A stretch of DNA of 64,000 bases, from the NCBI GenBank assembly GCA_937903605.1, contig CALCZC010000028.1, positions 70,680-134,679 of the forward strand, read 5' to 3'. The stretch's first letter is position 1; the number at the start of each line of letters is the position of its first letter. Source of the DNA: an uncultured bacterium (GTDB taxonomy: Bacteria; Patescibacteriota; Patescibacteriia; Magasanikbacterales; GWA2-37-8). The notes under the pieces are model-generated. The model saw only the letters and a list, made by a program, of their open reading frames with translations. It was not told the origin of the DNA and searched no databases. Made by a program: the position numbers and the translations under genes. Shown here piece after piece: positions 20,762-64,000 of the stretch.

Positions 20762-20833
20762 AAAAATTAAATCTCAAATCTCAAAATGCAAATCTCAAAA
20801 CTAAAGTATCGCTTCGCGATATCTAATTAAATT

Positions 20834-21465: not shown

Positions 21466-21543
21466 ATACTTTTATTTAACTTTAAGTTAAAATTACTTAA
21501 ATGTTTTTTTATTGTATACAAAATCGGTCTTTCTGGCAAGTAA

Positions 21544-21628
21544 ATTGAATACTGAATATTGTATATTGGATAAAACCAAAAATCCTGACCAATATTCAAT
21601 ATTTAATATTCAATATCCACTATCTATT
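21544..21628. repeat. R3 palindromic element (arms built of AATATTCAATATT / AATATCCAATATT units)
   Basis: attgaatactgaatattgtatattggata...ccaatattcaatatttaatattcaatatcc. Homologous palindrome lies inside the truB ORF at 45841-45915. Confidence 0.5.
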
Positions 21629-23828: not shown

Positions 23829-23975
23829 ATGTTGTAAATGTTCTAGGTGTTATAGATGTTGTAAATGTTCTAGATGTTCTAGATGTTATAGATTATCAAT
23901 TACAACAAGCGCTTTAGCGCGATAAAACAAACATAGTGGTAGAACAATTATAACAAGGGCTTTAGCCTGATAAAT
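23822..23975. repeat. R1 repeat block: tandem 12-18-mers (GTTCTAGATGTT / GTAAATGTT) then ACAACAAGCGCTTTAGCGCGATAAAA and TAGAACAATTATAACAAGGGCTTTAGCCTGATAAATT
   Basis: Direct reading. Left flank of the four-helix-bundle gene. Confidence 0.6.
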
Positions 23976-23987: not shown

Positions 23988-24359
23988 ATGGGAGGGTTAA
24001 ATTTTAGCTATCAAAATCTTGAAGTTACTATTTTAGCAAAAAAATTAATAAAAGAAATTTATTTTTTTACAAAAAACTTTCCAGCATCTGAAATTTACGG
24101 ACTTACAAACCAGTTAAGAAGAGCGGTAATATCAGTAGCTTTAAACATCGCAGAAGGAAGTAGTAAAAAAAGTTTTACAGATTTTAATAGGTATGTAAGA
24201 ATTGCAATAGGTTCTTTGGTAGAAGTCAATTGTGCTTTGGAAATATCTATAGAATTAGGGTATTTAAAAACAGAAGATTATGAAAAGATAAAATTAGATG
24301 TTCAGCCTCTTTATTTCAAATTAGTATCTTTATCAAAATATTTAACAAACAAGATTTAA
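23988..24359 (+). CDS. four-helix-bundle protein (23S rRNA intervening-sequence protein family)
   Basis: LTNQLRRAVISVALNIAEGSSKKSFTDFNRYVRIAIGSLVEVNCALEISIELGYL matches the conserved QLRRAAISIxSNIAEG...AxGSxxExxTxLxIA pattern of this family. 123 aa. Sits between pheS and pheT. Confidence 0.75.
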   Translation: MGGLNFSYQNLEVTILAKKLIKEIYFFTKNFPASEIYGLTNQLRRAVISVALNIAEGSSKKSFTDFNRYVRIAIGSLVEVNCALEISIELGYLKTEDYEKIKLDVQPLYFKLVSLSKYLTNKI

Positions 24360-24360
24360 A

Positions 24361-24415
24361 AATAACAAGCGCTTTAGCGCGATAAATCAATTAGAACAAG
24401 CGAAAAGCGATATAA
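24361..24415. repeat. R1 repeat (AACAAGCGCTTTAGCGCGATAAATCAATTAGAACAAGCGAAAAGCGATATAA), right flank of the four-helix-bundle gene
   Basis: Direct reading. Same core as 14821-14850 and 23903-23926. Confidence 0.6.
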
Positions 24416-26892: not shown

Positions 26893-27087
26893 AAAAACAA
26901 AGCCCTAAGCTCTAATTTCTAATCTCTAAACAAGTTCAAATATAAAATTTTAAAATTTGATATTTAATATTAAATATTGTTTAGGATTTAGAATTTAGGA
27001 TTTAGTTATTAAGCTTTTTTACAAAATTTTTAAAAAGTGTTATAATATTTACAAGATAATAAATAATTAATTTAACAAGGAGGATCT

Positions 27088-27474: not shown

Positions 27475-27710
27475 ATAAAAAAACCTCGCTATAGCGAGGT
27501 TTTTTAATAGTTGCCAAAAGTTAAATTTTTAGTTATTATGAAGTAGCCAAAGGGAGGGTCTTTTTGGTTTATTTTTTTGTAGTATAACTTGGTTGTCATC
27601 CTGAACCCAAAGGGTGAAGGATCTATAAGTAAGATAAAATTATGAATTAAACGCATTGCTTTTTACAGATTCTTCGTTTCACCCAGAATGACAAAATGGT
27701 TTCGTTATTC

Positions 27711-27738
27711 AAAAATCTAAAATCTAAAATCTAAAATT
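27711..27738. repeat. tandem heptamer AAATCTA x4 immediately upstream of dnaE
   Basis: aaaatctaaaatctaaaatctaaaattg. Confidence 0.5.
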
Positions 27739-30700: not shown

Positions 30701-31214
30701 AATTATTGAATTCGCCAAGAAAAAAATTACGCGTAGCGGTAAAACTATGATGTTTGCAACTATTGGCGATTTGACCGATAAATTGGAGCTTTTGATTTTC
30801 CCAAAAACTTACGAAACCACCAAGGATGTTTGGGTAGAAGGAAGAAATGTTTGTGTGATAGGGCGTACCAGCGAAGAAGAAGGGGATAATAAATTGTTTG
30901 TGGAAAAAGCATATGAGATAACACCGGAAAATTATATGGAGCTTACACAACAATTGGCAATGGGTAAAGAGCTTGGTTCTTCAAACGAAGAAAATAGTTT
31001 AAGAGAAGAAAGTATTACTTTGATTTTAAGTCTTGCGCAAGTCAAAGAAAAAGCCGATGTTATAAAAAGTATTTTGGCTAAATATCCGGGCGATATGCAG
31101 GTTTATCTTCGTGTCGGAGATAAGACGATAAAGACGCAATATCAAATAACATTTGACGATAATCTTAAAAAAGAGTTGGAAGATTTGTTGGGAGAGGGGA
31201 AGATAGTTATATAA
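27744..31214 (+). CDS. dnaE: DNA polymerase III alpha subunit (GTG start)
   Basis: PHP domain start SFTHLHVHSHYSLLDGL. Polymerase core and OB fold. 1156 aa. Confidence 0.9.
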   Translation: MSFTHLHVHSHYSLLDGLPKIKELVKTAKKRGFSALALTDHGNMYGAIEFYEACLKEEIKPIIGMEGYIASGSRFEKNPQDKYFHILLLAENYTGYRNLMKLSSLAHTEGFYYKPRMDKELLRQYSEGLICSTACMGGEIPRILHKENNYEKAKATALEYDEIFGRGNFFLELLDVPALEGQAEVNNQLIQISKETGIPLIVTRDVHYLNPEDAEAQDTLTCIRDGKTLEDTDRNTMVGMDFSLCEEKEIATRFKHVPEAIENTGKIAQRVNLVLELNKWHFPPIELPPGKTADEYLRDEVYTRLPKLIEFTDTVKERADYELGIIAKKGYSPYFIAVAEYVNYARENGIMETTRGSGAGSIVSYAMGITTVNPLFFKLPFERFLNPYRPSPPDIDADFADDRRDEMIAYVTKKYGEDKVAQIITFGTMMARGAIRDVGRALGYAYSFCDQVAKLIPAGAQGFQVTIAKALELEPDLKDLYNKNAQVKRLLDLAQKIEGCARHTSIHAAGVVISPTPLTDFTPVQRETGGERIVTQYEMHTVEAAGVLKMDFLGIRNLSILGRAVEIIEKTAGVKIDVFNIPWDDKKTYEMLARGETVGVFQLSSSGMTRYLKELKPSSIFDIMAMVALFRPGPMAVIPDYIARKQNPDLIKYLDPRMESYLDQSLGLIVYQDDVLLTAINLAGYNWEEADKFRKAMGKKIPEEMEKQKEKFFKGCKEVGKLKPELIEELWHLIEPFAAYGFNKAHAASYAVVAYQTAYLKANYPIQYMTAILIAESGDMDKVPEVIHECEKMGIKVLPPDVNQSFKSFAMITPDDGSTPYIRFGLNGVKNLGEHIAEVIYRTRKDGGKYQTLEDFIKRVNDKDLNKKSLEALIKCGALDAFGYDRGVLLNNIENLLNFIKQNNEQNNSNQNSLFAGSSIGFSNKIKIKDAPPATKEEMLKWEKELLGVYVTAHPFEFYAKKMEKCLTPIKELTNLGKKQWVVIGGIIEFAKKKITRSGKTMMFATIGDLTDKLELLIFPKTYETTKDVWVEGRNVCVIGRTSEEEGDNKLFVEKAYEITPENYMELTQQLAMGKELGSSNEENSLREESITLILSLAQVKEKADVIKSILAKYPGDMQVYLRVGDKTIKTQYQITFDDNLKKELEDLLGEGKIVI

Positions 31215-31268
31215 CTCAAAAGTCAAAACTCAAAAGTCAAAACTTTGGTGTCCCGATAAATCGGGACG
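31214..31268. repeat. R2 repeat, inverted copy of 20834-20888 (CTCAAAAGTCAAAACTCAAAAGTCAAAACTTTGGTGTCCCGataaatCGGGAC)
   Basis: Reverse complement aligns to gtcccgtagggacaccaaagttttgacttttga. Confidence 0.55.
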
Positions 31269-32176: not shown

Positions 32177-33235
32177 TTAACCTATTTCCCAAGTCGGATT
32201 TGCTTGTAGTTTTTTCCAAGGAATAAATTTTTTATTTTTGGCTTTGTAATATCCGGCTACTGCCAGCATGGTGGCGTTATCCATACAATATTTTAATTCC
32301 GGTATTAGCAACAGCACGCCTAAAGGTTTGATTTTTTCTTCCATAGTTTGACGCAATTTGGTGTTAGCTGTGACTCCGCCTCCCATCACAACAGTTTTGG
32401 GTTTATATTTTTTGATAGCGCGAACGGTTTTTTCTGTGAGCACATCAATGATAGCTTGTTCAAAACTTGCGCAAAAATCTTGTAGTTTCTTTTTGTTGTT
32501 AGCTGGATTTTTTTGTAGATGATAAAGTACAGCGGTTTTCAGACCCGAGAAACTAAAGTTGAAATTATCTTGATTGAGCATAGGTCGTGGAAAATCTATT
32601 GCTTTACCATTTCCTTTTTGAGCCAAGATAGAAATTTTTGGTCCACCAGGATAAGAGAGTTTGAGCATTTTAGCAACTTTATCAAAACATTCTCCGGCTG
32701 CATCATCCAATGTCGCGCCGATTAATTTATAATTGCCTGGTTTTTTCATCAAAACGAGTTCAGTGTGCCCACCGCTGACAATCAGAGCCAGAGCGGGATA
32801 TTGTATGGACTTCGGACTTCGGACTTCGGACTTCGCTCGGTTATTTTTTTGAAGTCTGTAGTCTGTAGACTGAAGACCGATCTCCACCGAATGGATATGA
32901 CCTTCGAGGTGATTCACGGAAACCAAAGGTTTTTTTAGGAAGTAAGAAAGATTTCGAGCAGTTTCTACTCCGACAATCAATCCAGTGATAAGTCCTGGAC
33001 CGGAAGCCACAGTTATGATATCCGGTTTTCCTTCTTTGCTTATCTCTTCAACCAAAGGGATAATTTTTTCCGCGTGCATGCGGCCGGCGATTTCCGGTAT
33101 AACTCCGCCGAATTTTTTATGTAAATCTATTTGTGAAGCGGTTTTTTCCGCAATTACAAAAAAACCCTTATTCGAGCATTCGACTAGGGCAACAGATGTG
33201 TCATCACATGAACTTTCAATCGCTAAAATTTTCAT
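32177..33235 (-). CDS. tsaD: tRNA N6-adenosine threonylcarbamoyltransferase TsaD (Kae1/YgjD family), with about 20-aa insertion
   Basis: MKILAIESSCDDTSVALV. HLEGH metal-binding motif. SGGHTELV block. 352 aa. Confidence 0.85.
   Translation of the reverse strand: MKILAIESSCDDTSVALVECSNKGFFVIAEKTASQIDLHKKFGGVIPEIAGRMHAEKIIPLVEEISKEGKPDIITVASGPGLITGLIVGVETARNLSYFLKKPLVSVNHLEGHIHSVEIGLQSTDYRLQKNNRAKSEVRSPKSIQYPALALIVSGGHTELVLMKKPGNYKLIGATLDDAAGECFDKVAKMLKLSYPGGPKISILAQKGNGKAIDFPRPMLNQDNFNFSFSGLKTAVLYHLQKNPANNKKKLQDFCASFEQAIIDVLTEKTVRAIKKYKPKTVVMGGGVTANTKLRQTMEEKIKPLGVLLLIPELKYCMDNATMLAVAGYYKAKNKKFIPWKKLQANPTWEIG
32807..32872. repeat. R4 palindromic element (GGACTTCG x3 ... T-run ... GAAGTCTGTAGTCTGTAGACTGAAGACC) lying in frame inside tsaD
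   Basis: Encodes IGLQSTDYRLQKNNRAKSEVRSPKS between the HLEGH and SGGHT blocks. Homolog at 45429-45488. Confidence 0.55.
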
Positions 33236-33239: not shown

Positions 33240-33509
33240 TCAATTTAAATACTTTTTGCTTCGAAGAGTTTTTTCCAGTTGAATTTTTAATTCATTGTGA
33301 CCTTTACCGCCTTTAAAAAATAATTCGCGTTTTTTTGCATCATCCCTACTTAAGTATGCTTCGTAATAAATCAATTTCAAAGGTCTTCGAAATTTTGTTG
33401 CTTTTACTAAACCGTTGGAATGGTTTAAATACCTTTGCTTTAAATTATTTGTATAACCAATATACAATTTTTTGTCTTTTTGACTGTATAATATATAAAC
33501 GTAAAACAT
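33240..33509 (-). CDS. GIY-YIG nuclease superfamily protein (UPF0213-like)
   Basis: MFYVYILYSQKDKKLYIGYTNNLKQRYLNHSNG: GIY...YIG spacing plus R and N residues. 89 aa. Confidence 0.8.
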   Translation of the reverse strand: MFYVYILYSQKDKKLYIGYTNNLKQRYLNHSNGLVKATKFRRPLKLIYYEAYLSRDDAKKRELFFKGGKGHNELKIQLEKTLRSKKYLN

Positions 33510-33526
33510 ACCCTCCTAAAGTTTAA

Positions 33527-33649
33527 GGACGCTAAGCGTCCTTTTAAGATTACGTTAATTTAATTGTGGAGTGGGACGCTAAGCGTCCCTATTACAACGC
33601 TCAGCTTAGAGTGGGACGCTAAGCGTCCCGAATACGACGCTAAGCGTCG
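33527..33649. repeat. cluster of four palindromic hairpins GGGACGCTAAGCGTCCC between tRNA-Met and the GIY-YIG gene
   Basis: Copies at 33527-33541, 33573-33589, 33613-33629 and 33636-33649 (GACGCTAAGCGTCG). Confidence 0.6.
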
Positions 33650-33650
33650 T

Positions 33651-33724
33651 GTCAGGGGGGAGAGTCGAACTCCCGACCTAAGGGTTATGAATCCTTCGCT
33701 CTTACCAACTGAGCTACCCTGACA
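33651..33724 (-). tRNA. tRNA with CAT anticodon (elongator Met or Ile2/lysidine)
   Basis: Reverse strand GTCAGGGTAGCTCAGTTGGTAAGAGCGAAGGATTCATAACCCTTAGGTCGGGAGTTCGACTCTCCCCCCTGACA. Acceptor GTCAGGG/CCCTGAC. Anticodon loop TTCATAA. T-arm GGGAGTTCGACTCTCCC. Confidence 0.8.
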
Positions 33725-43584: not shown

Positions 43585-45114
43585 TTATTTAGCGTATTCC
43601 ACAACTCGAGTTTCGCGAATTATGGTAACACGGATTTCACCGGGATATTGTAATTCTTGCTCAATACGACGGCAAACATCTTTGGCCAATTGATAAGCGG
43701 CATAATCATCAATTTCGCTAGGTTTGACAAAAATCCTGACTTCTCTACCAGCCTGAATAGCGTAAACTTTTTCAATACCCATGAAACTGCTGGCAACTTT
43801 TTCCAATTCTTCCAAACGAGCGACAAACTGTTCGTAACTGTCTTTGCGAGCTCCGACTCGAGAAGAAGAAATAGCGTCCGCCGCTTTCGCAATAGACGAA
43901 TATACATTATATGGTTTATCCATATGATGGGTGAGAGCAGCTTGAGCAATTTCTTCGTCAATATTGAATTTTTTAAGCAGTGCATAACCGATTTCTGGAT
44001 GAGAACCTTGAGTTTCTTGATCAACTGCTTTACCGATATCATGGAAGAAACCGCATTTTTTAGCTTTTGCTTCGTCCAATTTTAATTCTCCGGCAATGAT
44101 GGACGATAGATAGGCCACCTCAATGGAGTGATTAAGAATATTTTGACCGTAAGAAGTACGATATTTCAAACGTCCAACAATACTGACCATTTTTGGGTCA
44201 AGTCCGGTAATACCGAGTTTATATAGCGCTTCCTCACCGGCTTTTTTGATATCAATAGCCAAGTCTTGTTTGGCTTTTTCTACAAATTCTTCAATACGTG
44301 CCGGTTGAATACGTCCATCTTCTATCAATTTTTCCAAAGCTAATTTAGCTACTTGACGACGGATGGGGGAGAAACCGGAAACTGTAATAGTTTCCGGAGT
44401 ATCATCAATAATCAGTTCGCAGCCAGTTAATTTTTCGATTGTTTTAATATTGCGACCTTCTTTACCAATAATACGCCCTTTCATTTCTTCGCTTGGCAAG
44501 GTTACGGCAGTTGATGTGGTTTCTGCGGCATGAGAAGAAGCGCAACGTTGAATTGCGGTGGTGATTATTTCTCTGGCTTTATCTTCATAAACTTCACTGG
44601 CTTCTTTTTCTACTTTCATAACTCGACTTATCAAATCTGCTTGAGAGTCAGTTTCTATTTTATGAAAAAGTTGTTCCTTAGCTTGTTCCGGAGTCATACC
44701 GGCAACTTGTTGCAACTTTTGTTCCTGTTGTAGTTTGATTTTTTCAATATCTTCTTTGACTTTGTTTACCAACTCTACTTTTTCTTGAATTTTTTGTTGT
44801 TTATCCTGTAACTCCAAAAGTTTTTGGTCAAACATGCTTTCTCTTTTTTCCAAACGTTGTTGGGTGGCAGAAAGATCTTGACGTATTTGCCTTTCTTCTT
44901 TTTTGGTTTCGTCAATGATTTGGACCGCTTTTTCTTTGGCTTCCAAAATCAAAGTTTGATATTTGCTTTTAGCTTCTTCAAGCATTTTTTCCGCCTTAGC
45001 TTCGGCTGAATTAGCGGCTTTAAGAGCGGTTTTTTTACGCCAATAATAACCGACAAAAACCCCACCTATCAAGCAGACGATTGATCCGCCGATAGTATAG
45101 ATTACGATATTCAT
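43585..45114 (-). CDS. rny: ribonuclease Y
   Basis: N-terminal TM. Coiled-coil region. KH domain (IIGKEGRNIKTIEKLTG). HD domain (HSIEVAYLSSIIA...FHDIGKA). 509 aa. Confidence 0.9.
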   Translation of the reverse strand: MNIVIYTIGGSIVCLIGGVFVGYYWRKKTALKAANSAEAKAEKMLEEAKSKYQTLILEAKEKAVQIIDETKKEERQIRQDLSATQQRLEKRESMFDQKLLELQDKQQKIQEKVELVNKVKEDIEKIKLQQEQKLQQVAGMTPEQAKEQLFHKIETDSQADLISRVMKVEKEASEVYEDKAREIITTAIQRCASSHAAETTSTAVTLPSEEMKGRIIGKEGRNIKTIEKLTGCELIIDDTPETITVSGFSPIRRQVAKLALEKLIEDGRIQPARIEEFVEKAKQDLAIDIKKAGEEALYKLGITGLDPKMVSIVGRLKYRTSYGQNILNHSIEVAYLSSIIAGELKLDEAKAKKCGFFHDIGKAVDQETQGSHPEIGYALLKKFNIDEEIAQAALTHHMDKPYNVYSSIAKAADAISSSRVGARKDSYEQFVARLEELEKVASSFMGIEKVYAIQAGREVRIFVKPSEIDDYAAYQLAKDVCRRIEQELQYPGEIRVTIIRETRVVEYAK

Positions 45115-45428
45115 ATGTTATAAATAAAAAAATCCCAAGATTTTGGGAAGTTAAACATGTTTTAGCTTTATTTTAGCTAAAAAATCACTTATTTTACTTA
45201 TCCTTGGTACTTAAATTACAAAACTGCCAAAAATATTTTTTGGCTCAATACAGCTAAATTTGAAGTTTTGTTATTAAGATTGAAATTTGACATAACCTGT
45301 CGGTTTTCTATTACAAAAGGATAAATTCACAAACAGTGATAAGGCAGTTTAACTTCCGGAATCAAGATTGTTAATGAATTAATTTTGTATCTCCATTATA
45401 GCAATAATTTGTCTTTTTGTCAAACTGG

Positions 45429-45488
45429 TTGGTCTTCAGTCTGCGGTCTTCAGTTTTTTGTAGCCTGAGGTCTGAGGACCGAAGTCAA
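45429..45488. repeat. R4 palindromic element overlapping the last 13 codons and stop of truB
   Basis: ggtcttcagtctgcggtcttcagttttttgtagcctgaggtctgaggaccgaagtc. Homologous to 32807-32872. Confidence 0.5.
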
Positions 45489-46256
45489 ACACATTGCATC
45501 TTTTAAGTCGTAGTCGCCAATTTTAGTTCGTTTTAGTTCTTGGCAATAGGCCCTGGTATTCAATTTTTTTCCAATATCTTCCGCCAGAGTACGGATATAT
45601 GTTCCGGGGGAACAGGTGACGGTTATTTTTAAAACAGGATATTGATAACCCAAAATTTGTAAGTCAAATATTTCAATCTTGTTTGCTTTTCTTTTTATCT
45701 TTTTTCCTAAGCGCGCCAGTTTATAAAGTCGTTGCCCGTCTATCTTTTTAGCGGAAAACATTGGGGGAATCTGGTTTTGAGAGCCGATAAATTTTATCAG
45801 AATTTTTTCTATTTCAAGTTTTGAAGGAACATAAGGATGGATACTGGATATTGGATACTGGATATTATTTGAAAATATTTTTAATATCCAATATTTAATA
45901 TCCAATATTATTTTTTTGAGGGAACTTAATTTAAAAGGTGTGATAACCCCTGTTTTATCCCCAGTGTTTGAAACTTCACCCAACTTTATCGTCGCTTCAT
46001 AAGTTTTCGGCAGATTTTTGAAGTTTTCAATTTCTCGTGTAGCTTCGCGTCCGATTGCGACAATGAGCAATCCGGTGGCAAAAGGATCCAGCGTCCCGGC
46101 ATGTCCCACACGCGGTTTTTTAACTTCCGGATTTTGTTGGCGAAATATTTTTCGGATATATCCAACCACATCAAAACTGGTCCAGCCTTCGGGCTTGTTA
46201 ATTAGTAAAAAAGTATTTGATTCAAGTTTGAAATTGTTTTTAGTAATTATATTCAT
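45450..46256 (-). CDS. truB: tRNA pseudouridine(55) synthase TruB (no PUA domain) carrying an in-frame palindromic insertion
   Basis: Catalytic HAGTLDPFATGLL. FIGSQNQIPPMFSAKKIDGQRLYKLAR. 268 aa. Confidence 0.85.
   Translation of the reverse strand: MNIITKNNFKLESNTFLLINKPEGWTSFDVVGYIRKIFRQQNPEVKKPRVGHAGTLDPFATGLLIVAIGREATREIENFKNLPKTYEATIKLGEVSNTGDKTGVITPFKLSSLKKIILDIKYWILKIFSNNIQYPISSIHPYVPSKLEIEKILIKFIGSQNQIPPMFSAKKIDGQRLYKLARLGKKIKRKANKIEIFDLQILGYQYPVLKITVTCSPGTYIRTLAEDIGKKLNTRAYCQELKRTKIGDYDLKDAMCLTSVLRPQATKN
45841..45915. repeat. R3 palindromic element inside truB, 75 bp (25 codons, encodes IILDIKYWILKIFSNNIQYPISSIH)
   Basis: atactggatattggatactggatatt-atttgaaaatattttt-aatatccaatatttaatatccaatatt. 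Arms are reverse complements. Reading frame is maintained. Confidence 0.6.
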
Positions 46257-46734: not shown

Positions 46735-46979
46735 TTTTTCACCTGCTAACGAAAGTTGTTAAAATAACTTTTGCTCCAAAATCGGAACTGGAATATTTTA
46801 ATATATTTTTCTAATTTTGTCAACTAGACAGTAAAAAAGACTGTTTTTAGGCAAATCTTTTCTAATCCCAGCTGAAATATTTGACTTTTTTGTCAATTAC
46901 CTTTATAATTTCAATTACTTTTAATTTTTATTATTATTCTTACTGCTTACAAGCTTACTAGCTTACTGGCTCAACAAGT

Positions 46980-48995: not shown

Positions 48996-49007
48996 GAAGT
49001 TTTAACT

Positions 49008-49095
49008 GTTTTATCGCGCTAAAGCGCTTGATATAAATGATTTATCACTTCGTTTGTTTATATAACATTTAGAACAATTATAACATTTAACAACT
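49008..49095. repeat. R1 repeat, inverted orientation (TTATCGCGCTAAAGCGCTTG ... ATTTATCACTTCGTTTGTT ... TAGAACAATTATAACA)
   Basis: Reverse complement of CAAGCGCTTTAGCGCGATAA and AACAAACGAAGTGATAAAT; compare 14802-14850. Confidence 0.55.
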
Positions 49096-49423: not shown

Positions 49424-49434
49424 AATTACAAAAT

Positions 49435-49513
49435 GTCATCCCCGCGAAGGCGGGGATCCAGGAAAATTAAGATAGCCACTGGATTCCTCCGCCAAAGGCG
49501 GACGGGAATGACA
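49435..49513 (+). ncRNA. R5 structured element, copy 1 (three hairpins closed by a terminal GTCATCC/GGAATGAC stem); candidate small RNA or structured repeat
   Basis: gtcatccccgcgaaggcggggatccaggaaaattaagatagccactggattcctccgccaaaggcggacgggaatgaca. Followed by terminator AAACCCACTagttAGTGGGTTTTTTG at 49518-49545. Confidence 0.4.
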
Positions 49514-54408: not shown

Positions 54409-54479
54409 AAAACACTAATTTGAAAACACGAATTTTTACACTAATCAACACAGATAAACAAAAATAAAAAATACAAAGT

Positions 54480-54552
54480 GTCATCCCTGCGAAAGCAGGG
54501 ATCCAGGAAAAGTTAAACAAGCCACTGGATTCCTGCTTTCACAGGAATGACA
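54480..54552 (+). ncRNA. R5 structured element, copy 2, with compensatory substitutions relative to copy 1
   Basis: gtcatccctgcgaaagcagggatccaggaaaagttaaacaagccactggattcctgctttcacaggaatgaca. The CCCCGC/GCGGGG stem becomes CCCTGC/GCAGGG, and TCCGCC/GGCGGA becomes TCCTG/CAGGA. Confidence 0.4.
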
Positions 54553-54563: not shown

Positions 54564-57500
54564 ATGTATTCACGAACAGTAACACAATTTGATCTGATGA
54601 TGAAAACGATAATGATCGTGTTGTTTGTGTTTGGTTTGTTCGTATTTTTTGTTGATGTTACCAAAGCCGCACAGTGGGTAAATAATCCGGCTAATTGTGC
54701 GACCCAATCTCCCGGTGGAGAAGTTGTTTGTCAAACAAGCGAAACTCCGGATTCTCGTGTTTGTGGGGTCAGCGGAGTTCAATATTATTGTTTTTCAAGT
54801 GTGGCTGTATTTAGCGCTCCTGGATATACACAAAATAATAATCAAAATAGAAGCGGTTTAGGTGGTGGTTATATTATGGATTGTGAAGCAAACGATGGCG
54901 TTCCGCCAAGTGGGCCATTTTGTGACAATAGCACAGCTTTTTGGTGCAATAGTGATGTTACTTGTAATGATAAATTTAGAATTACTCGATGTAGCTCTAG
55001 TAAATGGGCTTATGAAGCAAATGCTTTTTCTTGTACAGATTGTATTTCAACCAGATTGGATTGTAGTGGAGATGATGTGTGTGAGGTGGTAAAAGGTGCA
55101 ACAACTTCATCCACTGTTCCAAATGCAAATTATGGAAATACTTGTGATAGCGTTGTTTGTAAAAGTGGTTATGAAAATTGCAACACTAGCACCTTGGATT
55201 GGAGTGATGGTTGCGAAATACAATTTAATGTTAGTACTTGTACAACAGGCGGAGGTGAACCGGGAGTTTGGACAGCTTGCGGAGTTTGTACAGCTTTACC
55301 GCCAAAATATTTCTTGACTGCTAGTAATACGGATTATTATTCAGACAAACCACTTCTTTGGGGAACACAACTGGGAAATGGTGATCTTGTCAGTTTCAGC
55401 AACGCAACTTCTTCAAATATTTTTGTAGTGAAAAACGATGCTTCTGTGTTTATGAGTTCCACCTTAGCCACAACCACGGATAAATATTTTTATAATTACA
55501 ACGGAGATTTATATTGGGGTGATATGAAATTGGGAACTGGTGGGGGAGTAACATATACTGCTGGCAGTGGACTAAATTTAGCCGGATATGAATTTACCAT
55601 TGATACTTCTACTGATTTTAATTGGACAGGACAGCATACTTTTAATACAACTACGACATTTCCGCTTGGAGTTTGGGGCGCGGATGGCAGGGTTGGTATT
55701 GGTACAACTACCCCTACCTCTAGTTTATCGTTAGTGGTTGGTGATTATGATGGGATTACTTTGTTTGATGCTACCGGACAAATGGCAGCGGGCTTGGGAG
55801 CCGGTGGTAGTGCAAACGCAGGACTATCTTTGTTTAATCGTATTTCTGGTGATATGAGTGTTTCTTTAAATTCTGATTCTAATTCATATATAAATAATGA
55901 TTATAATTTTGGTATTGGGACCACAACACCGGATTATAAATTTACTTTAGATGGAGATGGGTTTTTTATGGCGAGAGGATTGACTCATAATCCAATTATT
56001 TATGGTTATCAAGGTGAAATATTGGGGCAAACAGGAGAAGGTTCTAGAACATTTTTTTATCCAAGAAAATCAGCTTTTAGAAGTGGTGTAATTACTGATA
56101 TGTCAGTATTTGGTATGGCTTTTGGTTATCCATTTTCAAATGAAGTTGATCAATGGGATGATAATAATATTGGCTCGGCTTCTTTTGCAGCTAATGTAAA
56201 TAATAAAGCCAGTGGACTTTCTTCAGCGGCTTTTGGAACACACAACATTGCTTCAGGGACATCTTCTTTCGTGGGCGGTGGTAATGCTAATGAAGCCGCT
56301 GGATTAACCTCTATAGTTTTAGGCGGAACCGGTAATTTTGTTGGAGCTGAAGGATCAGGTATTGTAGGTGGTTGGTCAAACACTTCAACAGGTTTTAGTG
56401 CTTTTATCGGTGGTGGTAGATATAATATAACTTCAGGTGATTACTCTTTTATTGGTGGTGGTAGATATAATGTAGCTTTAAGTGATTATTCTGTTGCTTT
56501 TGGTAGTTATATGACGGTTTCCGGAACAAATTCTTTTGGTATAAATCTTTTTGGTGGTGGTATTTCTTCTACTCTAGCTCAAGATAATACTTTTGCAGTT
56601 ATGGGTGGAAATGTGGGGATTGGAACAACTACTCCGCAGCATACATTAACTTTGGCCGGAGATTTTGATATTGCTGAAAATGGCCTGTTAAAATTTAACG
56701 GAATTTCAGGTTCTGTTGATCAAGTTATCAAAATAAACACCTCCGGTTTTCCAGAATGGGTGGATGTTGATTCTCTTTTCATAAACAATACAACATTTAA
56801 TAGCAGCACCGAGTTTAACAGCACCAGCACTTTTAATAGCACCGCGATTTTTGAAGGGCCTTCATATTTCAATAATGATGTTTTTGTCAGCGGAACAATT
56901 TCTTCAACCAATTTATATGTAAATGGTAACAGTACAACAACCGGTGATCTGTATGTTCTCGGTCAAGCTATATTTCACGATATTTTACCAGCGGATAATT
57001 TAGCTTATGCGATAGGAACTTCTACGTTTGTTTGGAAAGAAGGTTGGTTTGGAAAAATATTTACTCCGGAAATTGATTTTACAAATAATTGGAAATTATC
57101 TACTACGACCGACGGAGGATTGGTATTTACTAGCTCTACCCAAGTGGCGTTGGCGATACTTTCTACCGGACAAGTGGGAATAAATACTACAACAATAGAA
57201 GCGAATTTAAAGATTAAGGTAGATGGAAATATTGGTTCCAAACTATATTGCGATGTAAATGGAAATAATTGTTTTGATCCGAACGCTTTCGGCTGGGCCA
57301 CTCCTCAAGCTAGATATATGAATACCACAACTGCTAATTATAATGGAAATTTTGGTAGTTTTCCGGCGGCTAGTGGGACAATTGGTTATGAAGCCGCAAA
57401 TCATATCTGTAGCTCTACGGTTGGTGTTGGTTATCATATTTGTCAGGCAAATGAAATTTTGGATATTATCAGAATTTATGGCACTAGCACGTTTGCCAGT

Positions 57501-57689
57501 AAAACAAACGGATGGGTAGCAAATGGTCCTCCAGGGTATGTCACGGTATCTACAAATGATTGTGAAGGATATACCACCTCTACCGTTAGTTTTTATGGAG
57601 CATGGTGGAAATTTAACGACAGTAGTGGTGGAGGAAGTGGAAAAATGACCAATTGCAGTACTCTCCAACCAATAGCGTGTTGTAAATAA
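54564..57689 (+). CDS. large secreted surface protein (paralog 2): signal anchor, Cys-rich N-module, Gly-rich tail-fibre-like repeats, shared C-terminal ACCK module
   Basis: N-module GGGYIMDCEANDGVPPSGPFCDNSTAFWCNSDVTCNDKFRITRC ... TCTTGGG. Repeats of type SFVGGGNANEAAG / YSFIGGGRYN. Motif MGGNVGIGTTTPQ. C-term GYEAANHIC...GPPGY...NDCEGYTT...GAWWKFNDSSGGGSGKMTNC...IACCK. 1041 aa. Confidence 0.65.
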   Translation: MYSRTVTQFDLMMKTIMIVLFVFGLFVFFVDVTKAAQWVNNPANCATQSPGGEVVCQTSETPDSRVCGVSGVQYYCFSSVAVFSAPGYTQNNNQNRSGLGGGYIMDCEANDGVPPSGPFCDNSTAFWCNSDVTCNDKFRITRCSSSKWAYEANAFSCTDCISTRLDCSGDDVCEVVKGATTSSTVPNANYGNTCDSVVCKSGYENCNTSTLDWSDGCEIQFNVSTCTTGGGEPGVWTACGVCTALPPKYFLTASNTDYYSDKPLLWGTQLGNGDLVSFSNATSSNIFVVKNDASVFMSSTLATTTDKYFYNYNGDLYWGDMKLGTGGGVTYTAGSGLNLAGYEFTIDTSTDFNWTGQHTFNTTTTFPLGVWGADGRVGIGTTTPTSSLSLVVGDYDGITLFDATGQMAAGLGAGGSANAGLSLFNRISGDMSVSLNSDSNSYINNDYNFGIGTTTPDYKFTLDGDGFFMARGLTHNPIIYGYQGEILGQTGEGSRTFFYPRKSAFRSGVITDMSVFGMAFGYPFSNEVDQWDDNNIGSASFAANVNNKASGLSSAAFGTHNIASGTSSFVGGGNANEAAGLTSIVLGGTGNFVGAEGSGIVGGWSNTSTGFSAFIGGGRYNITSGDYSFIGGGRYNVALSDYSVAFGSYMTVSGTNSFGINLFGGGISSTLAQDNTFAVMGGNVGIGTTTPQHTLTLAGDFDIAENGLLKFNGISGSVDQVIKINTSGFPEWVDVDSLFINNTTFNSSTEFNSTSTFNSTAIFEGPSYFNNDVFVSGTISSTNLYVNGNSTTTGDLYVLGQAIFHDILPADNLAYAIGTSTFVWKEGWFGKIFTPEIDFTNNWKLSTTTDGGLVFTSSTQVALAILSTGQVGINTTTIEANLKIKVDGNIGSKLYCDVNGNNCFDPNAFGWATPQARYMNTTTANYNGNFGSFPAASGTIGYEAANHICSSTVGVGYHICQANEILDIIRIYGTSTFASKTNGWVANGPPGYVTVSTNDCEGYTTSTVSFYGAWWKFNDSSGGGSGKMTNCSTLQPIACCK

Positions 57690-57713
57690 TTAATAAGTTA
57701 TAAAGCAAACAGT

Positions 57714-59615
57714 ATGCGATTAAAAGCTAAAACAACAATGAAAATAAATTTCTTGGTCAAAATGATAATGATCGTGTTGTTTGTGCTCGGCGCATTTGTA
57801 TTTTTTGTTGATATTTCCAAGGCGGCTGAATCTGAATGGAAAAATAATCCCGCTGAATGTAGCACTAAACTTGGTGCTGTGGAATGTTCTAGCGGATATA
57901 GAATTTGCGGGGTATTTAATAATTCCGGTTTGTGTTTTACTCCGATGACAAGAGAAAGATTATCCTCAACCAATGATGGTTTGTCACAAACAAGGTACTC
58001 TCCTTCTTTTGGTGGCGGTTTTATTTTAGATTGTAATGCAACTGTTACACAAACAAAAGGGGAAACCGAACCACATTGTAATAATTCTAATACAATTGGA
58101 GTAAACAGTCTTTGGTGTAATGCTAGCACCACTTGTTCGAATGATCATGTGTTAACTAGATGTTTTGCCGGAATTTGGGAAGGACAATCCGGATCACACG
58201 AATGTGTTGTTCCGGGGATGACTCCTACGACTACCGGATGTGTGAGTGGTTATGCAAATTGTAATTTAGGAGAACCAAATAGCCCTATTGACCCCAGTGA
58301 TTGTGAAGTTAGAATCGGTTTTACTACATGTACAGGCGCTGGTGGTTTGCAAGGAACTTACAATGCTTCTTGTCAATGTGTAGTTGCGACCTCCACATTT
58401 GTTACTGGTGTACAAACACATTTTGCCACTTCTTCACCCCTCCTTTGGGGGACACAATATGGAGATGGTGATCTTATAAAATTTTCAAAAAACAATATCT
58501 CCACCAATACCTTTATGGTAAAAAATGACGGCTCGGTGGGAATAGGAACAGATTCATTTGATAGTAATGTCGCCGCTTTGGTTGTATCTTCTACCAGTAA
58601 AGGAATTTTAATTCCAAGATTGACCGTCAGTCAGAGAGACGCGATTAGTGGAGCGCCGGAAGGCTTACTGCTTTATAATATGGATGATCATGAATTCAAT
58701 TATTATAATGGCTCGGGATGGGAAAGTGTTGGTAAAACTTATTCCGCTTCTAGTACCGGTGGTTTAAATTTAAGTGGAACAAGTTTTTCGGCTAATGTTG
58801 ATAATTTGACAATTGAAATTTCCGGAAGTAATCAATTGAAAGTAAAATATGATCCGATTTTCTTTGCGACAAACACTACTGGTTTGACATTTATGTACGA
58901 CGATGGATTCTTTGCTACCAGTAGTTTTGGTTTAATGCTCAAAGATATGGGTGTTGTCAGTAGTACCTATGGGAGCGAAAACACAGCGGTTACTTTGGGT
59001 ATTGATAATTATGGTCGAGTATATTTCGTCGCTACAAGCGCTATTATGATTGGAATAGAAAATATTACGAATTCATCTTCTCTGGCAAGAGTTGATATGG
59101 AAAACACTTTCACCTCGCCGACGATTTTCAGCGCCAGCACGACATTTAATGCGACGACAACTCATAATGCTGGGGTAAGAGCGAATTTGTATTGTGATTC
59201 TTCCGGAACGAATTGTTTTGATCCGAGTTTGGGTTGGGTTACTACGGTTCTTGACGTAACAACCACACCGGCTACAACAACAGGTTCATTTACCTTTACA
59301 ACAGGAACTCTACGAGGATATCAAGCAGGAAATGCAATTTGTAATCATTATTATCCAGGATATCATTTCTGTTTTAGTGGAGAAATAATTTCTTATATAA
59401 GAACGGCTTCCAATATTAATAAATTTGCGGGATTGCCTCAAGCATGGATATCTGAGGGTCCGCCAGGATTTACTTCTGATTCAAATGATTGCGGTGGATA
59501 TACCACGGCTGACTTAGAACCTCTGGGAGCATTTTGGGAATTTGATAGTGATGGTGGTGGTAGAGGTTGGCTATCTACTTGTGGTTCAGCAAAAAATATT
59601 GCTTGTTGTAAATAA
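57714..59615 (+). CDS. secreted surface protein (paralog 3) with the same N- and C-terminal Cys-rich modules
   Basis: MIMIVLFVLGAFVFFVDISKAA signal. GGGFILDCNAT...WCNASTTCSNDHVLTRC. TTGCVSGYANCN...DCEVRIGFTTCTGAGGLQGTYNASCQCVV. C-term GYQAGNAICNHYYPGYHFC...GPPGF...NDCGGYTT...GAFWEFDSDGGGRGWLSTCGSAKNIACCK. 633 aa. Confidence 0.65.
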   Translation: MRLKAKTTMKINFLVKMIMIVLFVLGAFVFFVDISKAAESEWKNNPAECSTKLGAVECSSGYRICGVFNNSGLCFTPMTRERLSSTNDGLSQTRYSPSFGGGFILDCNATVTQTKGETEPHCNNSNTIGVNSLWCNASTTCSNDHVLTRCFAGIWEGQSGSHECVVPGMTPTTTGCVSGYANCNLGEPNSPIDPSDCEVRIGFTTCTGAGGLQGTYNASCQCVVATSTFVTGVQTHFATSSPLLWGTQYGDGDLIKFSKNNISTNTFMVKNDGSVGIGTDSFDSNVAALVVSSTSKGILIPRLTVSQRDAISGAPEGLLLYNMDDHEFNYYNGSGWESVGKTYSASSTGGLNLSGTSFSANVDNLTIEISGSNQLKVKYDPIFFATNTTGLTFMYDDGFFATSSFGLMLKDMGVVSSTYGSENTAVTLGIDNYGRVYFVATSAIMIGIENITNSSSLARVDMENTFTSPTIFSASTTFNATTTHNAGVRANLYCDSSGTNCFDPSLGWVTTVLDVTTTPATTTGSFTFTTGTLRGYQAGNAICNHYYPGYHFCFSGEIISYIRTASNINKFAGLPQAWISEGPPGFTSDSNDCGGYTTADLEPLGAFWEFDSDGGGRGWLSTCGSAKNIACCK

Positions 59616-59620
59616 AATAA

Positions 59621-62600
59621 TATGAATATTCAGAAAATGGTACAATTTATTTCTTTTAAAAAAGCATTCTTTATTGCTTTGCTTGTATTTAGTTTTTCAA
59701 TAATTTTTGTAGATTCTGCAAAAGCCGCTGATTGGAAAAAAACCCCAGCCCAATGTCCCAGTGTATATGAAGGATACGGTCAAACCGGCGGTCCGGGAGA
59801 GGGTATGTGTGGTGTGTTGGGTAATACAGCTTTATGGTTTAGTACTTCATCTTTAGTGCTGTTAGTACCAACTGTTTCTACAAACACCAATAATACACCA
59901 GGAGTAAATTTAGGAGGATATGTTGTTGATTGCCATGCTTACGATGCAAGCCCTTTGCCAGACGGTCCTTTTTGCGATAATAATACAAATTTTTGGTGCA
60001 GTCCAGATCCATCTTGTAATAGTTTATATGTAAAAACAACATGTAATGCAAGTAAGTGGGCAATTGATTCCGGTGCTTTTACTTGTGTTACTCCTGGGGC
60101 AGCTCCCTCAACCACTGGGTGTATTAGTGGTTATGCAAATTGTAATATAGGAACTTCTGATCCTAATAATTGCGAGGTAAGAATAGGCGTTACAACCTGT
60201 ACCGGAGCCGGAGGTTTGCAAGGTACTTTCAATGCTTCCTGTGACTGTATTGTTCCGGCCTCTAATTTTAGAACTGGAATTCAAGCTGAATTTTTAACTT
60301 CTTCGCCTTTACTTTGGGGTAAACAATACGGTGATGGCGATCTAATCCGTTTTACAAATAACAAAGTTTCTACTTCTTCATTTGTAGTTTTTAATTCCGG
60401 ACAAGTTGCGATTGGACATAATATAAATGTTTCTACCACTTCCGTGGCGTTTGAAGTTTCGTCAACCCAGCGCGGTATCTTAATTCCGAGATTAGGCGGA
60501 ACAAATCCTATTACAAATGGCGTAGATGGTGAATTATATTACAATACAACATCAAAAAAATTCATGTATTACAATGGTCTTGCTTGGGGTGAGTTGGGTA
60601 GTGGTGGGTCTTCTTGGGTAACCACAACTTTATTGTCTGTTTCAGGTAATGCTACAGGGCTTTATCCAGCAGGAACAGTTTCTACTACGATTGGTATTGG
60701 AAGCACGGGTACGGATATTTGGTTACAAACCAGTAGTACTCCGAGATTATACGTAGCGGAAAATGGGAATGTGGGGATTGGGACGACTTCGCCTCAAGAA
60801 AAATTATCAGTGGTGGGGAATATTTCGAATTTAATAACAAATCAATCCGGAGTAGGTCGTATTTCTTTTGTTAATTTAACTGTTGGAAGTGTTGGAGATT
60901 ATGGTATATATTCTATTGATGTTTCTGGTCGTTATGCTTATGTAGGTGGTCCTGGATTAGGATCAACAGCCGCAAATTTTTCAATTATAGATATAAATGA
61001 TATTTATAATCCAGAGCCAATTTTTACCACTTCTGGTTTTGCAACTTATCTCAGAGATATAAAAGTAGCGGGGAAATATGCTTATTTAGGAAGAGGAACA
61101 TCAAGTGGCAATTTTAAAATATTAGATATTTCTAATCCTAAAAATCCTGTAGAAATATCCTCATCTACGTTTGGTACTAGTTTGCGCACTTTAGAAATTG
61201 TTGGCAACTATGCATATGTTGGTAATAATGCAAGTTCAAATAATTTTAGGATTATTGACATTTCCAATCCACGTAGTCCAATAAATATCTCAACAATAAC
61301 TATCGGTAGTACAGTTATTAATTCTATACAAATTGTTGGTAATTATGCATATATAACAAATATTCAAGGAGCAAATAATTTTAGTGTTGTTGATATCTCT
61401 GATCCGTATAATCCAATAAATATTTCAACAATAACCGCTGGTCTTTATAGTATTTATTCTGTCCAGGTATCGGGTCGGTATGCTTACATAGGGAATGGCA
61501 CAGGAGCAGCAGATAATTTTAGAATAATTGATATTTCTGATCCATATAATCCGGTAGTAACATCGACCTTGAAGGTTGGTAGCGCTAGTATTACGTCTAT
61601 AAAAATTTCTGGTCGTTATGCTTATATAGGAAGTTTTGCAACTACCGATAATTTTCACATAGTTGATATTTCCAACCCATCTTCTCCAATAAATATTTTT
61701 TCCGATAGTATTGCTGGAAGCAATGTTAGAGCTGTAAATGTGTCGGGTCGTTATGCATTTGTTGGAACCATGACTCAAACAAATGGAACTTTTAATATAA
61801 TTGATATTTCAGGAACAGAAGTTTCTTCTCTTATTGCGCACTCATCAGAAATCGGCAATTTACAAGTTCGTAATAACATTATCACACAAGGTATTGGTCA
61901 ATTTGGATCTCTTAATGTTGGTGCTGGAGGCTTACTTGTAAATGGGTCTTTGTCAGTGAGTGCCACGAATAGCCCATCTTATTTTGGAGGAAATGTTGGA
62001 ATTGGAACAACTTCTCCAATTTTTAAATTAACTCTTGGTGAAGATGGTGGTATTTATTCCGCTTGGCCAGATTATACTCCTCTTGGTTCATTGGAAGGGG
62101 CTGTTTTACCTTCGACTTCGTCTGGAACATTGATGTTTTGGTATCCGCGTAAAGCCGCTTTTAGAGCTGGTGTTATGGATAGGTCTCAACCAAACAGTGA
62201 TGCCTGGGATGAATCTAATATAGGTCTGTTGTCGTTTTCTTTTGGTGGTAATAATGTCGCTTCAGCCACTGGAACATTTGTAGTCGGAGGAGCCAATACA
62301 TCTTCAGGGCAATATTCATCAATTACTGGTGGTACATTTAATAATATAACGGGAAATGTTTCTTTTATTGGCGGTGGTTTTACTAACACCATTTCTTCAG
62401 GAAACTCTGCTATTGGCGGAGGATCTTATAATACTATTTCTGGTGCCTATTCATTTATTGGCGCTGGTAGAGATAATGTTGCTTCAGGATACGCTTCTTT
62501 TGTAGGGGGCGGTCGCAATAACACATCTTCAGGACAATATTCAGTTTCGTTTGGTTATGACAATGAAGTATCTGGTAACTATTCTTTTGTTAGTGGTCAG

Positions 62601-64000
62601 ATGAATGAAGTGAGCGGGTATAATTCTGTGGCATTTGGAAACAAAATGAATGTTAGTGGTGCTTATTCTTTTGGTATAAATTTAGAACCAGACGATGAGG
62701 GAGGTGTTGTTAATTTGTCAAATGATAGAGTTTTGGCAGTTATGGGCGGGAACGTGGGGATTGGGACCAGTAATCCTCTTGCGAAATTATCTCTTGATAA
62801 CGATGGTTCAATTTTAGCTCAAGGAACCTCTGGATCTGGTTGGAATGGTGGAACTCTTGGCGCTGGGTCTAGAATGATGTGGATAGCGAGTAAAGGTGCT
62901 TTTAGGGCGGGTAAAACTTGGGGAACAAATTGGGATACAACTAAAATAGGTTTTAATTCTATTGCTCTTGGTGAGGATCATTTAGTAACAAGCTCTTTTG
63001 GATTTGCTGCTGGGGGTAGAAGTCATGAAATAACAGGGGATTCTTCAGTTGTAATAGGTGGAGAAAATAATATTATTTCTGATAGTAATTCAGGTATTAT
63101 TGCTGGTTGGAATAATATTATATCAGATAGGTATTCTGTTATTTCTGGTGGTCAGGATAATTTAATTTCAAATGAATTTTCATTTATTGGTGGTGGTACT
63201 AACAACACTGTTTCAGGAGCTGGTTCTGTAATATTTGGTGGTTATAACAACACTGTTTCAGGAAATTATTCTTCTGCTTTTGGTTATAATATGAATGTTT
63301 CGGGAGGTTATTCTTTTGGTATTAATGTTAGTACTACAGCTGCAACACTTTCTCGAGATAATACCATTGCTTTGATGGGAGGTAATGTGGGGATTGGGAC
63401 GACCTCGCCACAATCTTTATTGGATGTATCTGGCGACAGTGCTACAATTAGAATTTCAGATCATTCTTCCACAAGAATACCAGCATTAATTTTTATGAGA
63501 GGTACTAGTACTGTATTTGGAGAAGATATTTGGACAGATTGGAAAATTGAAAATAATTCTGGTGAGCTTAGGTTTAGTGCTAACGCAAATGGAGTTTCTA
63601 CAACATCTTTATATTTAGGTTCATCAGGTAAGATAGGTATGAATACTATTCCTTTAACCTCGCTACACCTTGCTGGTGATGGAGCGATTTTGGCGACAGG
63701 AACTTATGGATCTGGCTGGGATGGAGGATCTCTTGGTGCAGGAACAAGATTGATGTGGATACCAAGTAAAGGTGCTTTTAGAGTAGGATATGTGAATGGA
63801 ACAGAATGGGACGAGACGAATATAGGCGCTTACTCTGCGGTTTTTGGTTATAATAGTTTAGCATCAGGCAGTCGTTCTTTTATTGGCGGTGGTTATAATA
63901 GTAGTGTAACTGGAAATTATTCCTCTGTAATTGGAGGTTTTAATAATAAGGTTGCAGGTGCAAATTCATTTATTGGTGCAGGTTCAAGTAATTTTGTTTC
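59621..64000 (+). CDS. giant secreted surface protein (paralog 4), 5' portion only (frame stays open to the window end; over 1450 aa in window)
   Basis: Not in the ORF track because no stop falls in the window. Signal MNIQKMVQFISFKKAFFIALLVFSFSIIFVDSAKAA. Same Cys-rich N-module (GGYVVDCHAYDASPLPDGPFCDNNTNFWCSPDPSCNSLYVKTTC; TTGCISGYANCNIGTSDPNNCEVRIGVTTCTGAGGLQGTFNASCDCIV). Seven LVIVD-type repeats (RYAYVGN...NNFRIIDISNP). Many Gly-rich YSFIGGGxNNxVSG repeats. Recurrent MGGNVGIGTTSPQ motif. Confidence 0.6.

Follow-up and report, generated by a model that had tools for sequence, protein, structure and literature searches.

In-frame heptanucleotide-repeat hairpins in the truB and tsaD genes of a Patescibacteria genome

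We analyzed a 64,000-nucleotide (nt) stretch of DNA from an uncultured bacterium of the Patescibacteriota (contig CALCZC010000028.1, positions 70,680 to 134,679), which we refer to as the window. Its closest relatives at the protein level carry names that place it in Candidatus Magasanikbacteria. Its GC content is low overall (about 0.31 to 0.44). Two of its genes, truB and tsaD, encode enzymes that act on tRNA, and each of them contains a palindromic segment that is read through in frame. We call these segments R3 (in truB) and R4 (in tsaD). All four of their arms are arrays with a period of 7 nt, as identified by Tandem Repeats Finder (TRF), and three of the four have 3.9 to 4.1 copies of the repeat unit.

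Hairpins within the coding sequences of truB and tsaD

First, the open reading frame (ORF) of truB continues through R3, which is in frame and has no stop codon. The predicted protein matches the Pfam family TruB_N (3.4e-43) in two stretches that are split by the insert, and it also matches TruB_C_2. R3 is formed by (ATATTRR)n units opposite inverted (YYAATAT)n units: the repeat finder reports two arms of 27 nt each that are 85% complementary and lie 14 nt apart. As RNA of the sense strand, R3 folds with a free energy of -25.8 kcal/mol (z = -8.1), and none of 200 shuffled sequences folded equally well. As DNA, it folds better than shuffled sequences on both strands.

Second, the tsaD ORF matches the Pfam family TsaD (3.8e-84), again in two stretches, and R4 lies within it in frame and without a stop codon. 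R4 is formed by (GGACTTC)4 opposite inverted (GAAGWCY)4. The second arm is degenerate, and TRF recognizes just 2.9 copies in it (32853 to 32872). Together, the arms and the loop encode 24 residues, GLQSTDYRLQKNNRAKSEVRSPKS. For the predicted fold, z is -4.2 (sense strand) and -3.4 (antisense strand).

In both proteins, the inserts appear as extra loops. Residues 107 to 146 of TruB (40 residues) correspond to 9 residues in the solved structure of TruB from Thermotoga maritima, which leaves about 31 extra; residues 119 to 143 of TsaD (25 residues) correspond to 5 residues in the solved structure of TsaD from T. maritima, which leaves about 20 extra. In AlphaFold models that were built from alignments of orthologs, the TruB insert is modeled as a helix (112 to 128) followed by a coil (129 to 145), with a predicted local distance difference test score (pLDDT) of about 50 to 74, and about 50 in the coil. 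The TsaD insert (119 to 147) lies between a helix and a strand and has a pLDDT of 41 to 52. Both inserts are in low-confidence loops of the predicted structures. The original prediction, which was made from the DNA sequence of the window, was correct that R3 is in frame with 27-nt arms and adds 25 residues to TruB, and that R4 is in frame and adds about 20 residues to TsaD. Its spacer of 17 nt for R3 should be 14 nt, and its repeat unit of 8 nt for R4 should be 7 nt.

The original prediction had called for a check against assembly error. The DNA of truB is identical on six contigs, which come from six samples and two assembly sources (ENA NODE contigs and Logan). Because these six assemblies are independent, an assembly error is excluded for the truB insert.

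Two other readings of R3 were considered and rejected. R3 does not seem to be an intrinsic terminator: orthologs do not conserve the T-run that follows it on the plus strand, and a terminator scan flagged neither R3 nor R4. Also, on the sense strand of truB, the R3 loop region (45868 to 45890) reads AUAUU-UUCAAAU-AAUAU, which could form a 5-bp stem with a 7-nt loop and which fits the T-loop consensus of the tRNA substrates of TruB. This form is confined to the window and one related locus (L095) and is absent from three others (L092, L093, and L244), so the resemblance to a T-arm is probably a coincidence.

Table 1. Positions of truB, tsaD, their inserts, and related palindromes in the window
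Feature	Coordinates	Strand	Description
truB	45450..46256	-	tRNA pseudouridine-55 synthase; ORF, 268 amino acids (aa); hosts R3 insert
R3 insert as translated	45837..45911	-	75 nt encoding 25 residues, IILDIKYWILKIFSNNIQYPISSIH
R3 arm 1	45841..45867		Plus-strand heptamer array (TGGATAY)n; TRF period 7, 3.9 copies
R3 loop	45868..45881		14 nt
R3 arm 2	45882..45908		Plus-strand heptamer array (YAATATY)n; repeat family D17
tsaD	32177..33235	-	tRNA t6A transferase subunit; ORF, 352 aa; hosts R4 insert
R4 arm 1	32807..32835		Perfect plus-strand (GGACTTC)4.1; TRF 100% matches
R4 loop	32836..32850		T-rich, CTCGGTTATTTTTTT
R4 arm 2	32851..32878		Degenerate complementary array GAAGTCT GTAGTCT GTAGACT GAAGACC; 28 nt
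Intergenic R3 copy	21544..21617		Arms 21544-21572 and 21590-21617, inverted heptamer arrays; unrelated 17-nt loop
R4-like heptamer hairpin	45429..45488		Covers last 12 codons and stop codon of truB; just upstream of rny promoter
Nested intergenic palindrome after pheT	26893..27010		Core 26949-26978 is an R3-like AATATT array, family D17

Variation and conservation at the two sites

In 35 relatives of TruB, we examined the interval between TGDKTGxI and FxGxQxQxPPMFSAK. Five of them (P0021, P0023, P0027, P0042, and P0048), with lengths of 219 to 225 aa, have no insert. The R3 peptide is present in ten proteins including the window's (P0001 to P0009 and P0012), and these relatives are 67 to 84% identical to it (by BLASTP). 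In P0020 (57% identity), R3 has another element nested in its loop. Other relatives have a plain stretch encoded by (AATCTAA)n, and the rest have other stretches that look as if they were derived from palindromes, some of them apparently nested.

The relatives of TsaD vary in a similar way, at the HSVEI/YPALAL site and at a second site after LQKNP. Four tsaD alleles that are 93 to 97% identical outside the inserts have three different states: the hairpin of the window (in the window and P0123), a hairpin of the R4 heptamer family in the opposite orientation and with a short loop (P0122), or a plain (AAAAATC)4 array (P0124). The insert of P0122 matches the reverse complement of the window's insert at 52 of 69 positions, as compared to 43 of 69 in the direct orientation. 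An ortholog with 74% identity has an empty site, GAAATT-AAATCTAAAATA-GTTTAC, in which AAATCTAAAATA is itself close to a heptamer repeat. In a more distant ortholog (L246, 63% identity), this site is occupied by a (CAGACTA)3/(CYGTAGT)n hairpin; overall, the TsaD of L246 (4285 to 5469, 394 aa) has three in-frame inserts, at three sites, that form hairpins (-22.5, -23.4, and -45.7 kcal/mol). What sets P0123 apart from the window's allele is a 60-nt palindrome, of a different type, at the second TsaD site. The alleles look more like replacements than like clean insertions.

As the original prediction proposed, the segments in TruB and TsaD are extra: orthologs lack them or have something else at the same place. 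That prediction overlooked the heptamer makeup of the arms and the hypervariability of both sites, which are hot spots of insertion and deletion.

R3 is found at the same position of truB in six sequenced orthologs, whose proteins are 57 to 85% identical to the window's. One of these (L245) has a GC-rich element of ~70 nt nested inside the loop of R3. When genome contigs were scanned with the TruB alignment, the best match had 60% identity. Across all pairs, identity at third codon positions is 0.71 to 0.92 within R3 versus 0.35 to 0.77 in the rest of truB. If we consider only the residues that are identical, then the codons are identical in 0.82 of cases within R3 versus 0.53 elsewhere; for pairs with L245, which is the most distant, the corresponding values are 0.67 to 0.93 and 0.37 to 0.42. 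Because the synonymous sites of R3 are more alike than those elsewhere in truB, it is the DNA of R3 that is conserved, rather than the peptide.

The similarity of R3 also does not follow that of the gene. The window and L092 are the closest overall (0.89), with an R3 identity of 0.77, while the window and L095 have an overall identity of 0.70 and an R3 identity of 0.87. In one R3 arm, nearly all of the YAATATY units end in C in the window and L095, and all of them end in T in L092, L093, and L244, a grouping that is at odds with the overall similarity of the genes. Concerted changes of the YAATATY units are a signature of array homogenization or of the exchange of segments, and changes across the units of an arm are typical of the dynamics of tandem repeats.

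Two features next to tsaD are also described here. A stand-alone protein of 89 aa with a GIY-YIG nuclease domain is encoded directly upstream of tsaD (33240 to 33509, minus strand). Of the three other contigs with tsaD alleles, two have this gene (L087/L088 and L089/L090), and L091 ends just upstream of tsaD. The gene is absent in L243. Further upstream, GC hairpins of the GGGACGCTAAGCGTCCC type, with a period of 40 nt (33520 to 33650), adjoin a tRNA gene (33650 to 33723, minus strand).

Heptamer arrays and palindromes across the window

Period 7 is the most common class of tandem repeat in the window: it accounts for 17 of the 32 arrays that have at least 3 copies. The density of these arrays is 26.6 per 100 kb in the window, 16.6 in related loci (~235 kb), and 5.8 in other genomes (1.1 Mb). 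Twelve of the 17 are outside of long ORFs. Heptamer arrays are found in most of the intergenic spacers, and several are arranged as inverted pairs (20769/20854, 21544/21590, and 26900/26980). The inserts R3 and R4 are part of this population of arrays.

Heptamer arrays also occur in frame within other genes of the window. In recG (ORF 4253 to 6361, plus strand), a (TAAATCA)4.6 array at 5278 to 5308, which has no inverted partner, encodes SKSEIINHQSKI in the core of the RecG helicase. In pheT (ORF 24430 to 26892, plus strand), there is an in-frame (AAACAAA)n array at 25286 to 25308. The pheT of L243, a relative, also holds a heptamer array, (TAGTTTT)n at 20603 to 20632. pheT may be a third hot-spot gene.

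The repeat unit of R4 is widespread. We found (GGACTTC)3 in at least 120 metagenome contigs; their GC content ranges from 0.31 to 0.69, which points to many lineages. Among the matches listed, these arrays are mostly plain direct repeats beside other heptamer arrays, and they sometimes form inverted pairs. On low-GC contigs, (GGACTTC)n is in frame in the genes for a UvrD/PD-(D/E)XK protein, two GT4 glycosyltransferases, an EPSP synthase, and an amidase. The original prediction described R3 and R4 as two distinct families of palindromes, but R4 is a simple repeat of 7 nt and is found in many phyla.

This also affects the hairpin at the 3' end of truB, which the original prediction considered to be a homolog of R4. 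The overlap with the end of truB is real, but this hairpin and the R4 of tsaD have only a family of repeat units and one 12-mer in common, and because (GGACTTC)n is a widespread simple repeat, the homology is at the level of the repeat unit only. For the fold of the 3'-end hairpin, z is -1.1 (sense strand) and -2.5 (antisense strand), and the C-terminal tail that it encodes is found in only some orthologs of TruB. Directly after it is a perfect sigma-70-type promoter (45395 to 45423, minus strand), with TTGACA, 17 nt, TATAAT, and an upstream TG; this promoter lies upstream of rny (RNase Y, 43585 to 45114).

A copy of R3 lies in intergenic DNA of the window, as originally proposed. It ends 13 nt before the start codon of rseP, whose product has Peptidase_M50 and PDZ domains. 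One of its arms is 92% identical to an arm of the truB R3 over 26 nt; a covariance model of R3 matches it at 21535 to 21622 (52.6 bits, E = 1.6e-6); and it folds at z of about -5 on both strands. A further R3-like array forms the core of the nested palindrome after pheT, where it is flanked by inverted arrays with TRF consensus units of AAGCTCT and TTTAGGA. The arrays at 27712 to 27737, 46939 to 46971, and 21590 to 21617 stop just 6 to 13 nt before the start codons of dnaE, infB, and rseP, respectively.

We also considered how readily these sequences can be translated. Stop codons are absent from all six frames of (GGACTTC)n and (ATATTGG)n arrays. Of the six frames of R3 itself, two are open, and only 7.8% of shuffles with the same composition are open. 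The intergenic palindromes at 26893 to 27010 and 20769 to 20884 have stop codons in all six frames, and the intergenic copy of R3 has them in five of six. The difference between the stop-free inserts and the stop-containing intergenic palindromes fits with translation of the inserts and filtering by selection. Judging from the reading frames, the segments in truB and tsaD are presumably translated, as they are in frame and free of stop codons, and the pattern of open frames argues against removal of the inserts at the RNA level.

Several other types of repeats are present. A dispersed 42-nt repeat (20842 to 20883 and 31213 to 31254, 93% complementary) lies in two intergenic spacers that are 10 kb apart and joins a small GC hairpin (GGGAC...GTCCC) to a heptamer array. 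Compound palindromes of the GTCATYCC...GGRATGAC type are found at 49434 to 49513, at 54479 to 54552, at about 27594 to 27697, and at about 6362 to 6400. Apparent palindromes of this type are also in frame in the TsaD of P0123, P0126, and P0130 and in the TruB of P0016, P0018, and P0020, where the assignment rests on the encoded peptides, and on the DNA as well for P0123 and L245. These palindromes appear to be a second and more discrete class that also enters genes. Another dispersed element, of ~30 to 50 nt with the hairpin AAGCGCTTTAGCGCGAT, has four direct copies and one inverted copy (14821 to 14850, 23897 to 23926, 23945 to 23974, 24357 to 24386, and 49007 to 49059); all of these are intergenic, often beside 9-nt tandem arrays (23822 to 23893). 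Finally, the very large ORFs at 54564 to 64000 contain glycine-rich repeats of 45 nt (15 residues) as well as 135-nt repeats. They probably encode repetitive surface proteins and are unrelated to the hairpins. A search of the window against Rfam identified four tRNAs, and no family matched R3 or R4.

Origin of the inserts and comparison with known systems

On balance, and with modest confidence, we favor the explanation that the inserts in truB and tsaD are heptanucleotide-repeat hairpins that arose by slippage and by template switching or recombination and were filtered by selection, rather than a transposon. Arrays would arise, expand, and homogenize through replication slippage. An inverted partner would be added by fold-back template switching, or by recombination with other arrays, whether at another place in the genome or from other strains, and the same processes could swap or flip alleles. 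Purifying selection would then let through only those versions that are a multiple of three in length, lack stop codons, and lie in tolerant loops.

Several points weigh against this explanation. Slippage, template switching, and recombination are inferred processes, and we did not see polymorphism in the copy number of R3 itself. The conservation of synonymous sites in R3 should not be seen in a neutral and unstable simple repeat. An exact 20-mer of an R3 arm is present at an unrelated intergenic site in L243, as half of an array beside pheT, which hints at dispersal. And both the element that is nested in the R3 loop of L245 and the presence or absence of an insert at the second TsaD site among nearly identical alleles are classic signs of mobile DNA. 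Because a neutral repeat does not account for the synonymous conservation of R3, explanations that invoke mobile elements or selected elements stay alive.

The inserts could be true mobile elements: an enzyme that is encoded elsewhere would copy them, and the in-frame survivors would stay in genes. This is unlikely in our view, but besides the 20-mer, the nested element, and the 60-nt palindrome of the second TsaD site, it would account for R3-type arms at 45841 to 45908, at 21544 to 21617, and in part at 26949 to 26978, as well as for one family of hairpins in opposite orientations at one tsaD site, with flanks that are 97% identical. The synonymous conservation would fit a sequence on which its own propagation depends, and the Rickettsia palindromic elements (RPEs) provide a precedent (PMC10969869). 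However, we found no target-site duplications, terminal repeats, or defined ends at the borders of R3 (CTCAAAAAAATA|ATATTGG...CCAGTAT|CCATCC) or R4 (GAGATC|GGTCTTC...GAAGTCC|ATACAA), and the loops of the copies are unrelated in sequence. R3 is rare: when we searched 674 kb (the window and Patescibacteria loci) with a covariance model of its structure and sequence, we found the truB copies and just one intergenic copy. An exhaustive search for the R3 peptide in 1.84 billion representative proteins yielded a single match, in a protein of 4,370 aa, although this is a weak test given the short query; a word-index search of other proteins with the doubled peptide gave no match; and in viral contigs, the R3 arm matched only AT-rich sequences by chance and one unrelated phage site. 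As for R4, many unrelated lineages have its unit array, for the most part as plain direct repeats.

We also looked for a transposase. Using the IS200-like Y1 transposase of L243 as the tblastn query, we found none in the 64-kb window, and L145 was the only other locus with a match. In L243, the gene (16440 to 16886, 148 aa, PF01797) lies between dnaE and pheT, within a block of small additional genes. We rejected a link to the inserts because this gene has no counterpart in the window and does not adjoin the arrays.

A somewhat less probable alternative is that the inserts are functional nucleic acid elements under selection, such as DNA or RNA structures or arrays of protein-binding sites, and that the peptide is a tolerated by-product. 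The sequence and the palindromy of R3 are maintained at the truB site across proteins of 57 to 85% identity: 91% of the counted pair cells in the six orthologs are paired, and 15 of the 25 pairs are invariant. The higher identity of synonymous codons in R3 (see above) would be expected if the nucleic acid were selected. Also, the intergenic arrays abut start codons and a perfect promoter, much like the TAACTGA repeats that were proposed to be regulatory (PMC4679880). On the other hand, the six orthologs of R3 show one compensatory pair, and no measure of covariation rose above the shuffle controls. The mismatches in R3 are balanced between G.U (10) and A.C (8), so neither RNA strand is favored. 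The hairpin is weak in L093 (z = -1.4), close relatives have no insert or a different one, and the Rfam search found no match to either hairpin.

A bolder proposal is that heptamer-array hairpins are a distinct class of self-maintaining elements of the Candidate Phyla Radiation (CPR), which are kept at the DNA level in essential genes and are exchanged or inverted at hot spots by dedicated machinery, such as a binding protein or a nuclease, that recognizes hairpins or heptamers. We view this idea as doubtful. Finally, it is very improbable that the inserts are fold-back chimeras from assembly or amplification, which can produce palindromes in amplified metagenomic DNA (and all of our data are from metagenome assemblies), or that they are ancestral protein sequence that is palindromic by chance, since the identical truB DNA was recovered from six samples and two assembly sources, the same insert is kept in five other species-level relatives, insert-free orthologs exist, and the solved structures have short loops.

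The inserts extend protein-coding palindromes, which are so far best known from Rickettsia, to the CPR, a group of ultra-small bacteria, and tie them to heptanucleotide simple repeats. This suggests a simple path from repeats to new protein loops in essential enzymes. The allelic states of tsaD (hairpin, inverted hairpin, plain array, or empty) could serve as strain markers, and the inserts call for caution in the alignment and phylogenomics of marker genes from the CPR. The conservation of R3 at the nucleotide level makes it possible to test if a DNA or RNA structure is selected within a coding region of a minimal genome.

How do these hairpins compare to known systems? MITEs (short for miniature inverted-repeat transposable elements) are also small, non-autonomous, palindromic DNAs that can extend or alter the ORFs of the host. 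But MITEs have terminal inverted repeats and target-site duplications, and the borders of R3 and R4 have neither. In cyanobacteria, the small dispersed repeats (SDRs) and the heptameric short tandemly repeated repetitive sequences (STRRs) are very short palindromic repeats that are nested in each other and are found in heptamer arrays and in genes; the SDRs are units of 21 to 27 nt, not paired arrays. The work on SDRs (Elhai 2008) is named in PMC3116915. In REPINs, two repetitive extragenic palindromic (REP) sequences, each an imperfect palindrome of ~20 nt that is extragenic, form a doublet that folds as a hairpin and is mobilized by a REP-associated tyrosine transposase (RAYT) (PMC3116915). 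Like REPINs, our hairpins have two inverted repeat units around a short spacer and are dispersed in intergenic DNA; unlike REPINs, their arms are tandem heptamers, two copies are within genes, and the window has no RAYT.

Heptanucleotide simple sequence repeats (SSRs) are already on record. According to the account of Mrazek 2007 in PMC4679880, they outnumber the other long simple repeats in most prokaryote genomes, and polymerase slippage was proposed as their origin. TAACTGA arrays occur in Beggiatoaceae, cyanobacteria, and Bacteroidetes; in Beggiatoaceae and cyanobacteria, they precede start codons and are at times within ORFs, and a regulatory role was proposed for them; in the Beggiatoa genome that was studied, all but one set are direct repeats, and those in ORFs are mostly at the ends of proteins (PMC4679880). 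The arrays that we describe are similar: they are short arrays of 7-nt units, they are mostly intergenic and often right before start codons, three of the four R3 and R4 arms have at least three head-to-tail units, and one heptamer occurs in unrelated phyla without a known mechanism of transfer. They also show the dynamics of arrays, as seen in (AAAAATC)4 versus AAATCTAAAATA at the empty tsaD site and in the concerted changes of the YAATATY units. They differ from TAACTGA arrays in that they are inverted pairs that give stems of 27 to 28 bp, in that they lie in the middle of enzymes encoded by essential genes, and in that many different heptamers are involved.

The original prediction likened the inserts to RPEs, which are about 150 bp long, fall into ten sequence families with a conserved peptide per family, and have 44 integrations in R. 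conorii (Ogata et al. 2000, 2002, as described in PMC10969869). The likeness is considerable: R3 and R4 are stable hairpin-forming repeats, in frame in housekeeping genes and absent from orthologs; they have relatives in intergenic DNA; they lie in loops that are compatible with the fold of the protein; and there are several types per genome. There are also differences. The inserts are just 72 to 75 nt, their arms are 7-nt tandem arrays, and the copies share only a unit or an arm, rather than forming a multi-copy family of ~150 bp that places its peptide in many unrelated genes. In addition, R3 has a low copy number, the sites are hypervariable hot spots, and the host is a CPR bacterium. Given the heptamer arrays in the arms, the inserts are unlikely to be homologous to a described family of RPEs. 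So the part of the prediction that concerns extra, frame-preserving segments with intergenic relatives holds up, and the part that concerns mobility is only partly supported, as the elements have no defined ends or duplications, the window has no transposase, and R3 is low copy. Overall, the inserts behave like RPEs, and they are better described as heptanucleotide-repeat hairpins than as a transposon.

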